From assembly GCF_003334815.1 (NCBI RefSeq), contig NZ_QOWO01000017.1: a DNA stretch of 64,000 nt. The stretch is one strand, 5' to 3'. Shown here one piece after another: positions 1 through 6,422 of this stretch. Under the pieces are notes generated by a model. It did no database searches. It worked only from the letters and a program-made list of their open reading frames with translations, and was not told the DNA's origin. Source of the stretch: Escherichia coli. Lineage in GTDB: Bacteria > Pseudomonadota > Gammaproteobacteria > Enterobacterales > Enterobacteriaceae. The position numbers and the translations under genes are program-made. Each line of letters begins with the position of its first letter. Within the stretch, counting starts at the first letter, position 1.

Positions 1-482
1 TACAGCCTGGGGCGCAAATTAGCCCAACGACGCCGCTGATGGCGGTCGTTCCAGCCACCAATATGTGGGTGGATGCCAACTTTAAAGAGACGCAGATTGC
101 CAATATGCGTATCGGTCAGCCGGTCACTATCACCACGGATATTTACGGCGATGATGTGAAATACACCGGTAAAGTGGTTGGTCTGGATATGGGCACAGGT
201 AGCGCGTTCTCACTGCTTCCAGCGCAAAATGCGACCGGTAACTGGATCAAAGTCGTTCAGCGTCTGCCTGTGCGTATCGAACTGGACCAGAAACAGCTGG
301 AGCAATATCCGCTGCGTATCGGTTTGTCCACGCTGGTGAGCGTCAATACCACTAACCGTGACGGTCAGGTACTGGCAAATAAAGTACGTTCCACTCCGGT
401 AGCGGTAAGCACCGCGCGTGAAATCAGCCTGGCACCTGTCAATAAACTGATCGACGATATCGTAAAAGCTAACGCTGGCTAA
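1..482 (+). CDS. emrA: Multidrug efflux pump membrane-fusion protein EmrA, C-terminal part (5' end lies upstream of the window)
   Basis: ORF track 39..482 translation matches EmrA C-terminus; frame stays open to the window edge; followed 17 nt later by emrB. Confidence 0.9.
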   Translation, partial: QPGAQISPTTPLMAVVPATNMWVDANFKETQIANMRIGQPVTITTDIYGDDVKYTGKVVGLDMGTGSAFSLLPAQNATGNWIKVVQRLPVRIELDQKQLEQYPLRIGLSTLVSVNTTNRDGQVLANKVRSTPVAVSTAREISLAPVNKLIDDIVKANAG

Positions 483-498
483 TCCAGAGGTGCGTGTG

Positions 499-2037
499 AT
501 GCAACAGCAAAAACCGCTGGAAGGCGCGCAACTGGTCATTATGACGATTGCGCTGTCACTGGCGACATTCATGCAGGTGCTGGACTCCACCATTGCTAAC
601 GTGGCGATCCCCACTATCGCCGGGAATCTGGGCTCATCGCTCAGCCAGGGAACGTGGGTAATCACTTCTTTCGGGGTGGCGAATGCCATCTCGATCCCGC
701 TTACCGGCTGGCTGGCAAAGCGCGTCGGGGAAGTGAAACTGTTCCTTTGGTCCACCATCGCCTTTGCTATTGCGTCGTGGGCGTGTGGTGTCTCCAGCAG
801 CCTGAATATGCTGATCTTCTTCCGCGTGATTCAGGGGATTGTCGCCGGGCCGTTGATCCCGCTTTCGCAAAGTCTATTGCTGAATAACTACCCGCCAGCC
901 AAACGCTCGATCGCGCTGGCGTTGTGGTCGATGACGGTGATTGTCGCGCCAATTTGCGGCCCGATCCTCGGCGGTTATATCAGCGATAATTACCACTGGG
1001 GCTGGATATTCTTCATCAACGTGCCGATTGGCGTGGCGGTGGTGTTGATGACACTGCAAACTCTGCGCGGACGTGAAACCCGCACCGAACGGCGGCGGAT
1101 TGATGCCGTGGGGCTGGCACTGCTGGTTATTGGTATCGGCAGCCTGCAGATTATGCTCGACCGCGGTAAAGAGCTGGACTGGTTTTCATCACAGGAAATT
1201 ATCATCCTTACCGTGGTGGCGGTGGTGGCTATCTGCTTCCTGATTGTCTGGGAGCTGACCGACGATAACCCGATAGTCGATCTGTCGTTGTTTAAGTCGC
1301 GCAACTTCACCATCGGCTGCTTGTGTATCAGCCTCGCGTATATGCTCTACTTCGGCGCTATTGTTCTGCTGCCGCAGTTGTTGCAGGAGGTCTACGGTTA
1401 CACGGCGACCTGGGCAGGTTTGGCCTCTGCGCCGGTAGGGATTATTCCGGTGATCCTGTCGCCGATTATCGGCCGCTTCGCGCATAAACTGGATATGCGG
1501 CGGCTGGTAACCTTCAGCTTTATTATGTATGCCGTCTGCTTCTACTGGCGTGCCTATACCTTTGAACCAGGTATGGATTTTGGCGCGTCGGCCTGGCCGC
1601 AGTTTATCCAGGGGTTTGCGGTGGCCTGCTTCTTTATGCCGCTGACCACCATTACGCTGTCTGGTTTGCCACCGGAACGACTGGCGGCGGCATCGAGCCT
1701 CTCTAACTTTACGCGAACGCTGGCGGGGTCTATCGGCACGTCGATAACCACGACCATGTGGACCAACCGCGAGTCGATGCACCATGCGCAGTTGACTGAG
1801 TCGGTAAACCCGTTCAACCCGAATGCCCAGGCGATGTACAGTCAACTGGAAGGGCTTGGGATGACGCAACAGCAGGCATCAGGCTGGATTGCCCAGCAGA
1901 TCACCAATCAGGGGCTGATTATTTCCGCCAATGAGATCTTCTGGATGTCAGCCGGGATATTCCTCGTCCTGCTGGGGCTGGTGTGGTTTGCTAAACCGCC
2001 ATTTGGCGCAGGTGGCGGCGGAGGCGGTGCGCACTAA
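499..2037 (+). CDS. emrB: Multidrug efflux MFS transporter EmrB (512 aa)
   Basis: Translation MQQQKPLEGAQLVIMTIALS... with C-terminal Gly-run; ORF track start 490 (GTG) trimmed to ATG at 499. Confidence 0.93.
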   Translation: MQQQKPLEGAQLVIMTIALSLATFMQVLDSTIANVAIPTIAGNLGSSLSQGTWVITSFGVANAISIPLTGWLAKRVGEVKLFLWSTIAFAIASWACGVSSSLNMLIFFRVIQGIVAGPLIPLSQSLLLNNYPPAKRSIALALWSMTVIVAPICGPILGGYISDNYHWGWIFFINVPIGVAVVLMTLQTLRGRETRTERRRIDAVGLALLVIGIGSLQIMLDRGKELDWFSSQEIIILTVVAVVAICFLIVWELTDDNPIVDLSLFKSRNFTIGCLCISLAYMLYFGAIVLLPQLLQEVYGYTATWAGLASAPVGIIPVILSPIIGRFAHKLDMRRLVTFSFIMYAVCFYWRAYTFEPGMDFGASAWPQFIQGFAVACFFMPLTTITLSGLPPERLAAASSLSNFTRTLAGSIGTSITTTMWTNRESMHHAQLTESVNPFNPNAQAMYSQLEGLGMTQQQASGWIAQQITNQGLIISANEIFWMSAGIFLVLLGLVWFAKPPFGAGGGGGGAH

Positions 2038-2046
2038 GTACAACTA

Positions 2047-2074
2047 AGCCAGTTCATTTGAACTGGCTTTTTTC
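2047..2074 (+). terminator. Rho-independent terminator hairpin (agccagttca/gaactggct) with T-run, between convergent emrB and luxS
   Basis: Perfect inverted repeat followed by tttttt, read directly from sequence. Confidence 0.7.
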
Positions 2075-2100
2075 AATTAATTGTGAAGATAGTTTACTGA

Positions 2101-2616
2101 CTAGATGTGCAGTTCCTGCAACTTCTCTTTCGGCAGTGCCAGTTCTTCGTTGCTGTTGATGCGTACGTCACGTTCCAGAATGCTACGCGCAATATCCTGC
2201 GCTTCCTGCAACGAGTGCATCTGGTAAGTGCCACACTGGTAGACGTTCAGTTCCGGGATCTGATTCTGATCCTGCACTTTCAGCACGTCTTCCATTGCCG
2301 CTTTCCAGGCATCAGCAACACGCTGCTCATCTGGCGTACCAATCAGACTCATATAAAAACCGGTGCGGCAGCCCATTGGCGAGATATCGATAATCTCTAC
2401 ACCATTACCGTTAAGATGGTTACGCATAAAACCAGCAAACAGGTGCTCCAGGGTATGGATCCCTCTTTCTGGCATCACTTCTTTGTTCGGCACGCAGAAG
2501 CGCAGATCGAACACGGTGATTGCGTCGCCATGCGGGGTGTTCATTGTTTTCGCCACCCGAACTGCAGGCGCTTCCATCCGGGTATGATCGACTGTGAAGC
2601 TATCTAACAACGGCAT
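2101..2616 (-). CDS. luxS: S-ribosylhomocysteine lyase LuxS (autoinducer-2 synthase), 171 aa
   Basis: Full-length translation recognised as LuxS. Confidence 0.95.
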
Positions 2617-2650
2617 TTAGCCACCTCCGGTAATTTTTTTAAAAATTTTC

Positions 2651-2680
2651 TGAACTCTTTCTTCCCAGGCGAGTCTGAGT
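2651..2680 (+). promoter_or_regulatory. Candidate sigma-E type promoter for micA (-35 gaactc, -10 tctga, 16-nt spacer)
   Basis: Motifs lie immediately upstream of the micA 5' end at 2685. Confidence 0.5.
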
Positions 2681-2684
2681 ATAT

Positions 2685-2757
2685 GAAAGACGCGCATTTG
2701 TTATCATCATCCCTGAATTCAGAGATGAAATTTTGGCCACTCACGAGTGGCCTTTTT
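2685..2757 (+). ncRNA. micA: MicA (SraD) small regulatory RNA
   Basis: Sequence GAAAGACGCGCATTTGTTATCATCATCCCTGAATTCAGAGATGAAATTTTGGCCACTCACGAGTGGCCTTTTT in the luxS-gshA intergenic region, ending in a terminator hairpin plus T-run. Confidence 0.85.
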
Positions 2758-2765
2758 CTTTTCTG

Positions 2766-4349
<1,584 letters not shown>

Positions 4350-4394
4350 TTAATTAGCATAACTGTAATGGTGACCATATGTGCAGGCCTACAA

Positions 4395-4823
4395 TTAGTG
4401 CCACCACATCATGCCCTGAACGGTCGCTGCTGCAACTGCAACATAGCGTAACGCTTTACCAAGGCACAAAAAAAAGATTACCGGTCCCCACGAGATGCGC
4501 ATCCATCCCGCTAACAGACACAGTAAATCGCCAACCACGGGCATCCAGCTTAATAATAGCGTGACTGCACCATAGCGTTTCAGCCAGCCGGTAGCTTTCT
4601 CTTGCCAGCGCGATGTTTTACGCAATGGAAAGAAACGCCCAAGGATAACGTTAGTTAACCCTCCAAGGCTATTACCCATTGTTGCTGTTAAAACTAAAAC
4701 CCAGGGATGACTGATCCCGGAAAGCAACATTGCCACCAGCACGACTTCGGAGTTGCCGGGTAATAGTGTAGCGCTGAGAAAACTACTGGCAAACAACGAG
4801 AAAAGCGATAACGCTTCACTCAC
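4395..4823 (-). CDS. yqaA: Inner membrane protein YqaA (DedA/SNARE-associated-like family)
   Basis: 142-aa hydrophobic ORF; synteny with gshA/yqaB; 4-nt overlap with yqaB. Confidence 0.85.
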   Translation of the reverse strand: MSEALSLFSLFASSFLSATLLPGNSEVVLVAMLLSGISHPWVLVLTATMGNSLGGLTNVILGRFFPLRKTSRWQEKATGWLKRYGAVTLLLSWMPVVGDLLCLLAGWMRISWGPVIFFLCLGKALRYVAVAAATVQGMMWWH

Positions 4824-5386
4824 AGCAAGCGAACATCCACGGCGTCCATGCCTGCTGCACGGGCCGCCTGAATACCGAAATCGGCATCTTCAAAGACCAC
4901 ACACTGCGTCGGTTGCACGCCCATACGCTGCGCGCACAACAAAAATGTGTCTGGCGCGGGTTTATGGTGTTTGACGTGATCGGCAGCGACGACGGCGTCA
5001 AAATAATGGCGTAATCCCAGGTGCGCCAGCAATGCCTCAGCGATGGCGCTTTCACTCCCCGTTCCTACAGCCATTGGGCGACGACCATGCCAACTTTTCA
5101 CCACATCAACAAGAGGAAGCGGTTCGACGCTATCCAGCAGCATACTTCTTACTGCTTCTGTTTTTTCACGCGCTAACGCATGCGGGTCGAGATCGGCCTG
5201 ATTCAGCTCAATAATTGCCTGAGCAATACGCCAGGTGGGCGATCCATTAAGCGCAATCATCGCCTGAATATCGTACTGAAGACCGTAGTGCCCTAATACT
5301 TCGCGCCACGCTTTACGGTGCGTAGGCTCCGTATCCAGGATTGTGCCATCCATATCAAAAATTAAACCTGCATAACGCTCGTACAT
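4820..5386 (-). CDS. yqaB: HAD-superfamily sugar phosphatase YqaB
   Basis: N-terminal DxDGT HAD motif (LIFDMDGTILDTE); 188 aa. Confidence 0.88.
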   Translation of the reverse strand: MYERYAGLIFDMDGTILDTEPTHRKAWREVLGHYGLQYDIQAMIALNGSPTWRIAQAIIELNQADLDPHALAREKTEAVRSMLLDSVEPLPLVDVVKSWHGRRPMAVGTGSESAIAEALLAHLGLRHYFDAVVAADHVKHHKPAPDTFLLCAQRMGVQPTQCVVFEDADFGIQAARAAGMDAVDVRLL

Positions 5387-5666
5387 GGTCTTCTCGCAAG
5401 TCGAAAAATATGACGCTACTTTAGCGTAATTGCTTGATTTTGTCGCTGATGGCGAAGGAGAAGAAAATTCAGGAAATGGATAAAGGAGTTATTTAGAAAT
5501 GAGATATTTTTGAAGGAAATTTTTTGGAGAAGATGGTGCATCCGGGAGGATGACTCACTGACGTTCGCCCTTCGGGCCGTTGCTGGCGCAACGTTATCCT
5601 TCCTGGTGCCTGCGGTTAATACCGCTATCTCTTCGATACCTTCATTGCTGAAGGTTACGGAGAATA

Positions 5667-5743
5667 TGGTGCATCCGGGAGGATTCGAACCTCCGACCGC
5701 TCGGTTCGTAGCCGAGTACTCTATCCAGCTGAGCTACGGATGC
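5667..5743 (-). tRNA. tRNA-Arg (anticodon ACG), 77 nt
   Basis: Reverse complement reads GCATCCGTAGCTCAGCTGGATAGAGTACTCGGCTACGAACCGAGCGGTCGGAGGTTCGAATCCTCCCGGATGCACCA. Confidence 0.95.
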
Positions 5744-5941
5744 ATCGGGAAAACTTATTCTACTGCTGATATTGATACCGCTACTAAAGCCATATCAATT
5801 AAGAGATGGTGCATCCGGGAGGATTACTCGCCTTGCGGCTCGCCCTTCGGGCCGTTGCTAAAGCAACGTTATCATCCCTAGTGCCTGCGGTTAATACCGC
5901 TATCTCTTCGATACCTTCATTGCTGAAGGTTACGGAGAATA

Positions 5942-6018
5942 TGGTGCATCCGGGAGGATTCGAACCTCCGACCGCTCGGTTCGTAGCCGAGTACTCTATC
6001 CAGCTGAGCTACGGATGC
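5942..6018 (-). tRNA. tRNA-Arg (anticodon ACG), 77 nt, identical to the copy at 5667..5743
   Basis: Identical 77-nt sequence. Confidence 0.95.
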
Positions 6019-6021
6019 AAA

Positions 6022-6114
6022 TGGCGGTGAGGCGGGGATTCGAACCCCGGATGCAGCTTTTGACCGCATACTCCCTTAGCAGGGGAGCGCCTTCAGCCTC
6101 TCGGCCACCTCACC
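6022..6114 (-). tRNA. serV: tRNA-Ser (anticodon GCU), 93 nt with long variable arm
   Basis: Reverse complement reads GGTGAGGTGGCCGAGAGGCTGAAGGCGCTCCCCTGCTAAGGGAGTATGCGG...CGCCTCACCGCCA. Confidence 0.93.
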
Positions 6115-6396
6115 ACACGCCTCTTACGAGTGCTTCGAAGAACTTGTTTATCGCTCATCGTCGCTGCGTGGCGCACATATTACTTTCTGAGACTTATAAG
6201 TCAAACAATTTTTCCTACACTTTTATCGTTTGCACACTTCACGTTCAATTAGTCTGTAAAAACGTCAAAAAGAGTGTTTTATCAACAGAAGAATGGAGGT
6301 CTGACAGATAGTAGTAATGCAAAAAAATGGAGACTTAAGTTGAATGAACGGGAGTAAAGCGAAAAGACTATAGAGTGAAGGAGAAATTTTGAGGGT

Positions 6397-6422
6397 GCGT
6401 CTCACCGATAAAGATGAGACGC
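6397..6422 (-). terminator. Stem-loop (gcgtctca/tgagacgc) downstream of csrA, candidate csrA terminator
   Basis: Perfect 8-bp inverted repeat 8 nt after the csrA stop; only a modest U-tract. Confidence 0.5.

Follow-up and report, generated by a model that had tools for sequence, protein, structure and literature searches.

The window analysed here, which is the whole stretch of 64,000 nucleotides from Escherichia coli contig NZ_QOWO01000017.1, almost certainly contains at 2685..2756/2757 (+) the canonical E. coli micA gene, encoding a sigma-E-driven, ompA-pairing small RNA (sRNA), whose function in this strain is presumed from its identity with the K-12 allele that has been studied. MicA is a classic component of the envelope-stress response governed by sigma-E, and reduces the synthesis of outer-membrane proteins. 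The gene is an already known one, neither a new member nor a variant of its family, and all of this is published; the sole added value of the present analysis is a corrected orientation relative to luxS and gshA. The intact MicA marks an ordinary E. coli chromosome segment with the envelope-stress circuit in place.

The gene and its neighbours

The whole 64-kb window was scanned with all 4227 Rfam families, a check that had been proposed in a preliminary description of the locus. Four matches at gathering level were returned, namely MicA (RF00078) and three tRNAs. The MicA match at 2685..2756 (+) reached 83.9 bits (E = 1.4e-11) against a gathering score of 41 bits, and extended untruncated over model positions 1-75 of 75. 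Once in register, 2685..2757 is exactly the RefSeq micA gene of MG1655 (b4442, 2814802..2814874; 73 nt), and the 301 bases at 2560-2860 show 100% identity to MG1655. The full-length match and the identity to K-12 micA thus bear out the claim that the MicA sequence is intact at 2685..2757, while the length of 72 nt that accompanied it does not fit these coordinates, which span 73 nt. The same 301-base stretch was found in 5424 of 5426 complete E. coli genomes (in 4687 of them at 99% identity or more), and its copies are chromosomal without exception and located between annotated gshA and luxS genes. A chance match to MicA is excluded by the Rfam score, the rarity of the promoter pattern (see below) and the 100% identity with MG1655.

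The features of the locus, with their coordinates in the window, are the following:

490..2037, plus strand: emrB, with order and annotation as in MG1655
2101..2616, minus strand: luxS coding sequence, with ATG at 2616 and stop at 2101
2634..2649, plus strand: AT-rich upstream element T7 A5 T4, with the T-tract at -51..-45
2652..2657, plus strand: -35 element GAACTC, positions -33..-28
2658..2673, plus strand: spacer of 16 bp, unconserved in sequence at -24..-17
2674..2678, plus strand: -10 element TCTGA, positions -11..-7
2685..2757, plus strand: micA gene (MicA/SraD sRNA); Rfam end at 2756 (72 nt), RefSeq-equivalent end at 2757 (73 nt), 3' end within the U-run
2691..2708, plus strand: 5' target-pairing region (nt 7-24), complementary to ompA mRNA -22..-5 and covering the Shine-Dalgarno sequence
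2707..2728, plus strand: stem-loop 1 (nt 23-44), from the minimum-free-energy fold and the Rfam consensus structure
2729..2734, plus strand: AU-rich single-stranded linker AAUUUU (nt 45-50), unpaired in the fold; Hfq-protected site according to PMC4618604
2735..2757, plus strand: intrinsic terminator with a 7-bp GC-rich stem and a 4-nt loop (2735-2752) followed by a U-run, from the fold and a consensus scan
2766..4322, minus strand: gshA coding sequence, stop codon at 2766-2768
2948..2987, minus strand: published luxS P1 promoter fragment (-371..-332), start at G2948, inside gshA; the primers of PMC2956633 map exactly

The location of micA in the spacer between luxS and gshA, as described previously, agrees with these coordinates and with the MG1655 annotation. 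The gene had also been described as transcribed opposite to and immediately downstream of luxS, which is right for the strand and wrong for the side. Because luxS is read from the minus strand and begins at 2616, micA lies upstream of luxS and the two genes are divergent: the luxS start codon faces the micA promoter, with 68 bp from the luxS ATG to micA +1, and the micA -35 element is only 35 bp from the luxS ATG, within the DNA encoding the luxS 5' UTR. Nor does micA overlap the luxS 3' region, as had been stated, since neither the coding sequence nor the 3' end of luxS is overlapped, and the latter is about 580 bp away, facing emrB. This corrected arrangement is that of the literature, where micA is 'positioned at 5' of luxS and at 3' of gshA', 'overlapping with its 5'UTR' (PMC4618604). 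With gshA, micA is convergent, the gshA stop being located 8-9 bp past the MicA 3' end.

The element that does lie at the luxS 3' end is not micA, but a perfect 10-bp hairpin (2046..2069, AAGCCAGTTCA-TT-TGAACTGGCTT) placed in the gap between the stops of the convergent emrB (2037) and luxS (2101) and followed by a T-run on the plus strand only. It is likely the emrB terminator, and possibly serves both emrB and luxS.

For comparison, 120 loci were retrieved from a collection containing one genome per species by means of an exact 25-nt word inside MicA (+3..+27). They include loci from Citrobacter, Salmonella, Enterobacter, Yersinia, Serratia, Pantoea, Erwinia, Rahnella, Hafnia and Edwardsiella, and their gapless alignment on the transcription start yielded 110 distinct sequences over -60..+80. 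The 5' part of MicA, which holds the retrieval word, is conserved in this set by construction, and only the promoter and the 3' part are independent. On the strand opposite to micA, LuxS begins approximately 68-200 bp upstream of micA +1 in all the 116 loci that reach luxS, and the GshA C-terminus is found just past the MicA terminator in 114. The luxS(-)/micA(+)/gshA(-) synteny is complete in 110 of the 120 loci; the remaining 10 lack one flank because the locus ends short.

The first 6.6 kb of the window contain, in this order, emrA' (partial), emrB, luxS, micA, gshA, yqaA, yqaB, tRNA genes and csrA. Positions 1..6019 are 99.93% identical to MG1655, with four mismatches, none of which is within 2560-2860; judged by its sequence, the window is from a close relative of K-12 and not from MG1655 itself. 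About 3 kb from micA, a tRNA array at 5667..6114 (-) comprises tRNA-Arg(ACG) at 5667-5743 and 5942-6018, and tRNA-Ser(GCU) at 6022-6114. The corresponding MG1655 array has four Arg genes (argQ, argZ, argY and argV) and serV, and the window is short by one repeat unit of about 414 bp. When positions 5390-6420 were used as a query, at least 80% was covered in one piece in 3558 of 5426 complete E. coli genomes; the eight top matches listed have the two-Arg array, and none of these eight is identical, the best being MC1061 at 99.5%. The difference is probably a repeat-mediated variation in copy number.

The promoter

A -35 gaactc and a -10 tctga spaced by 16 bp had been reported for micA, and this reading is exact (2652-2657 and 2674-2678); the position 2651 from which the earlier feature started is one base ahead of the -35 element. 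When positions 2600-2800 were read directly, the RNA was seen to begin with GAAAGACGCGCATTTGTTATCATCATCCCTGAATTCAGAGATGAAATTTTGGCCACTCACGAGTGGCCTTTTT at G2685, six bases past TCTGA, so that the discriminator between the -10 element and G2685 (+1) is 6 bp long. The pattern GAACT-N17-TCTGA occurs once on the two strands of the 64 kb, compared with 0.03 occurrences expected from dinucleotide-preserving shuffles. The region has the anatomy of a sigma-E promoter, in which a GGAACTT-like -35 element with an AAC core is separated by about 16 bp from a TCNAA-like -10 element containing an invariant C, and the start follows after a discriminator of 5-6 bp.

The promoter region lies outside the word used for retrieval, and yet the 110 distinct Enterobacterales sequences show a clear conservation footprint there. 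In the -35 element, A, A and C at -32, -31 and -30 are kept in 109-110 of the 110 sequences; the two T at -27 and -26 are kept in 109; in the -10 element, T, C and T at -11, -10 and -9 are kept in 109, and A at -7 in all 110. Farther upstream, T is kept at -50 to -45 in 93-109 sequences. The spacer at -24..-17 is nearly random (0.13-0.53 bits per position in the same 110 sequences). The ungapped register is kept in nearly all the loci, one listed promoter sequence being off by a base, and because it holds, the lengths of the 16-bp spacer and of the 6-bp discriminator are conserved as well.

The promoter of the same gene was studied by Udekwu and Wagner (PMC1851643), who described the 16-bp spacer, the 6-bp discriminator, the invariant C in the -10 element, the AA of the -35 element and a conserved AT-rich element 5' of the latter, and noted that the micA -10 element is identical to that of rpoH P3. 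In their experiments, MicA was induced by ethanol, hyperosmolarity and heat, and by overexpression of rpoE; it was undetectable in a delta-rpoE strain, and the sigma-70 holoenzyme did not transcribe micA (PMC1851643). Parallel work on MicA and sigma-E has been performed in Salmonella (PMC1804206). The assignment of a sigma-E-type promoter is thus supported both by the conservation of the -35 and -10 elements in Enterobacterales and by published genetics on an identical sequence (PMC1851643), and it is on the latter experiments that the presumed sigma-E dependence of micA in the present strain rests.

The position of the transcription start also bears on an open reading frame, listed mechanically at 2683..2829 (+), which has 48 codons and an ATG start. 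If this frame encoded a small protein, the 'sRNA' would be a short mRNA, and the ATG, at -2..+1, is indeed present in 91 of 114 distinct homologous contexts. However, the mapped start G2685 is the third base of this ATG (PMC1851643), and the RNA is therefore devoid of the start codon. In addition, there is no Shine-Dalgarno sequence, and the frame crosses the terminator into gshA antisense; the ATG is missing in 23 of the 114 contexts, stops occur within 30 codons in 44, and loop indels of 1-2 nt in relatives shift the frame after about 11 codons. A coding function for 2683..2829 is scarcely credible, and this candidate was rejected because its start straddles +1, it has no ribosome-binding site and its frame is not conserved.

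RNA structure and pairing with ompA

The 72-nt MicA folds with a free energy of -20.5 kcal/mol (z = -2.7 against shuffled sequences) into two stem-loops, leaving the 5' third weakly structured. It is built like an Hfq-binding sRNA: a stem-loop is followed by an AU-rich linker, and the RNA ends in a Rho-independent terminator with its U tail. An Hfq footprint on the linker between the stem-loops has been published, and Hfq is probably bound to the U tail too (PMC4618604). The related loci supplied 78 distinct MicA variants, in which both stems are almost unchanged, while the linker and both loops differ in sequence and also, by 1-5 nt, in length. The pair that closes the terminator loop is U-A in Escherichia, Salmonella and some Citrobacter, and A-U in most others; covariation in the stems is sparse, as they hardly vary among the 78 variants. 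Stems that are kept and loops that vary give these sequences the look of a structured RNA under selection.

Small insertions just past the MicA seed were observed in four loci of the comparative set (L115, L017, L025 and L112), such as an additional TCA or TCTCA repeat within the ATCATCATC tract, bringing the RNA to 76-78 nt. In one of them, L115, the LuxS match begins only at residue 43 and is 60% identical; luxS may be diverged or rearranged there.

The hairpin at 2735-2752 was independently listed as a terminator by the consensus scan, on the plus strand and with the T-run next to it. Being located 14 bp past the gshA stop and able to form on both strands, it might be thought of as a terminator for gshA only, with the rest of the MicA match being an inactive relic, and no gshA-luxS polycistronic message has been reported (PMC2956633). 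On the minus strand, however, the hairpin is followed by AAAATTTC, without a T-run, and the scan lists a terminator on the plus strand only; moreover, the promoter elements and the 5' seed are strongly conserved, and the RNA has been detected experimentally from this very sequence (PMC1851643). This makes the relic reading highly improbable. A bidirectional role of the hairpin as gshA terminator is likewise unsupported, given the missing T-run on the minus strand, and a weak terminator is possible.

As for the target of the RNA, nt 7-24 of MicA form with ompA -22..-5 a near-continuous duplex across the Shine-Dalgarno sequence with an energy of -21.7 kcal/mol, a value reached by 6 of 2000 shuffled seeds (mean -13.8 ± 2.3 kcal/mol). 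The duplex was computed from the 24 nt at the MicA 5' end only, using the ompA leader of MG1655. The ompA-complementary region is mostly unpaired in the MicA fold. An unconstrained calculation with full-length MicA and the whole ompA leader gave a loop-ridden duplex of -44.5 kcal/mol, which was matched by 16 of 500 shuffles and was discarded as physically meaningless. The computed ompA duplex agrees with the published pairing, an Hfq-dependent interaction for which gel shifts and compensatory mutations have provided proof (Rasmussen 2005; Udekwu 2005; summarised in PMC4618604). Other direct targets of MicA include lamB, ompX and phoPQ (PMC4618604). Hfq binding and repression of ompA in vivo have been published for the identical K-12 sequence (PMC4618604), and would be expected to hold here too.

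All the features of the MicA family that can be tested on a sequence, namely model score, synteny, seed complementarity, the build of an Hfq-dependent sRNA and sigma-E promoter anatomy, were therefore found at this locus, which identifies the gene as the known one.

Overlap with the luxS leader

A luxS promoter of the sigma-S type, P1, was reported by Udekwu to start at a G located 332 nt upstream of the luxS AUG (PMC2956633). The primer sequences of that study have unique sites in the window at 2948-2966 and 2967-2986, and the position calculated from the luxS start codon (2616 + 332 = 2948) is a G on the minus strand, in agreement with the published start. By these coordinates, RNAs made from P1 would run across 2757..2685 and be antisense to MicA over its whole length. 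In the same study, a shorter luxS species was shown to be made by a processing that needs MicA and RNase III, and the LuxS protein was unchanged on MicA overexpression (PMC2956633).

These data raise the question of whether micA is mainly a cis-encoded antisense RNA for luxS, acting through RNase III cleavage or transcription collision and linking envelope stress to AI-2 quorum sensing, with its trans targets being secondary. The overlap is unavoidable for any luxS transcript starting upstream of 2685, including those from the published P1 start at G2948 (-); a luxS RNA species that depends on MicA and RNase III has been reported (PMC2956633), and the divergent luxS/micA layout is kept across Enterobacterales. 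On the other hand, the unaffected level of LuxS protein on MicA overexpression (PMC2956633) argues against such a main role, as does the conservation of MicA, which is highest in the 5' seed matching the trans target ompA; sigma-E control and Hfq dependence also suit a trans role. A primarily antisense function is therefore unlikely, and the effect on the luxS leader is best seen as an extra, weaker and secondary activity of MicA, besides its action in trans.

A sigma-70-like site (ATGATA-18-TATACT, 9/12 matches) is present inside the micA 5' region at 2707..2678 (-); it is the only one, where chance alone would give 0.9. Transcription from it is predicted to begin at about 2671, which disagrees with the proximal luxS 5' end in the literature, known to have an overlap of about 14 nt with MicA; the site was therefore treated as probably due to chance and rejected.

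Discussion

The mode of action that the locus would support is the one established for K-12. When the envelope is stressed or the cells are in stationary phase, RNA polymerase containing sigma-E would start at G2685 from GAACTC-16 bp-TCTGA (2652-2678), and transcription would stop at the intrinsic terminator at 2735-2757, yielding an RNA of about 72 nt. Hfq would sit on the AU-rich linker and on the U tail, and the unstructured 5' part of MicA (about nt 7-24) would pair with the ribosome-binding regions of ompA, lamB, ompX, phoPQ and other envelope mRNAs. The pairing is expected to block translation and to accelerate mRNA decay, so that fewer outer-membrane proteins would enter the stressed envelope. 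In addition, the long luxS transcripts with starts inside gshA would carry a 5' leader to which MicA is perfectly complementary, and MicA may direct their processing by RNase III.

It is conceivable, though improbable, that the fixed luxS/micA/gshA arrangement is itself functional, with sigma-E-driven micA transcription and the duplex of MicA with the luxS leader gating the access of another sRNA, CyaR, to the luxS start, and with the shared hairpin helping to end gshA transcripts. This hypothesis was put forward by Udekwu (PMC2956633), and the gene order is kept across Enterobacterales. If this were true, envelope stress would tune AI-2 and glutathione synthesis in cis.

The corrected orientation has a practical side. 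A deletion or insertion placed at the luxS start or upstream of it can remove or disturb MicA, since micA lies at this end of luxS, and 'luxS' phenotypes misattributed in this way, such as biofilm defects, have been documented from such constructs (PMC4618604).

Compared with known systems, the locus is closest to MicA of K-12 (SraD, b4442, RF00078), from which it does not differ: the RNA, the promoter, the 301-base context, the neighbours, the strands, the terminator and the ompA seed are the same. MicL is a sigma-E-dependent, Hfq-binding enterobacterial sRNA. Like MicA, RybB (PMC1804206) and MicL combine a sigma-E promoter with a short Hfq-dependent RNA whose 5' end represses mRNAs of outer-membrane proteins or lipoproteins, but they differ from MicA in sequence, locus and target set, and are outside RF00078. 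Of these three RNAs, only MicA is also antisense to the leader of a neighbouring gene (luxS). As for the promoter, micA has in common with rpoH P3 and rpoE P2 a -35 element with an AAC core, a 16-bp spacer, a TCTGA -10 element with the invariant C, a 6-bp discriminator and an AT-rich upstream tract; the identity with rpoH P3 is 85% in the -35 element and 100% in the -10 element (PMC1851643). The first position of the micA -35 element is T and not G (TGAACTC compared with the consensus GGAACTT), and, unlike rpoH P3 and rpoE P2, the micA promoter drives a non-coding RNA.
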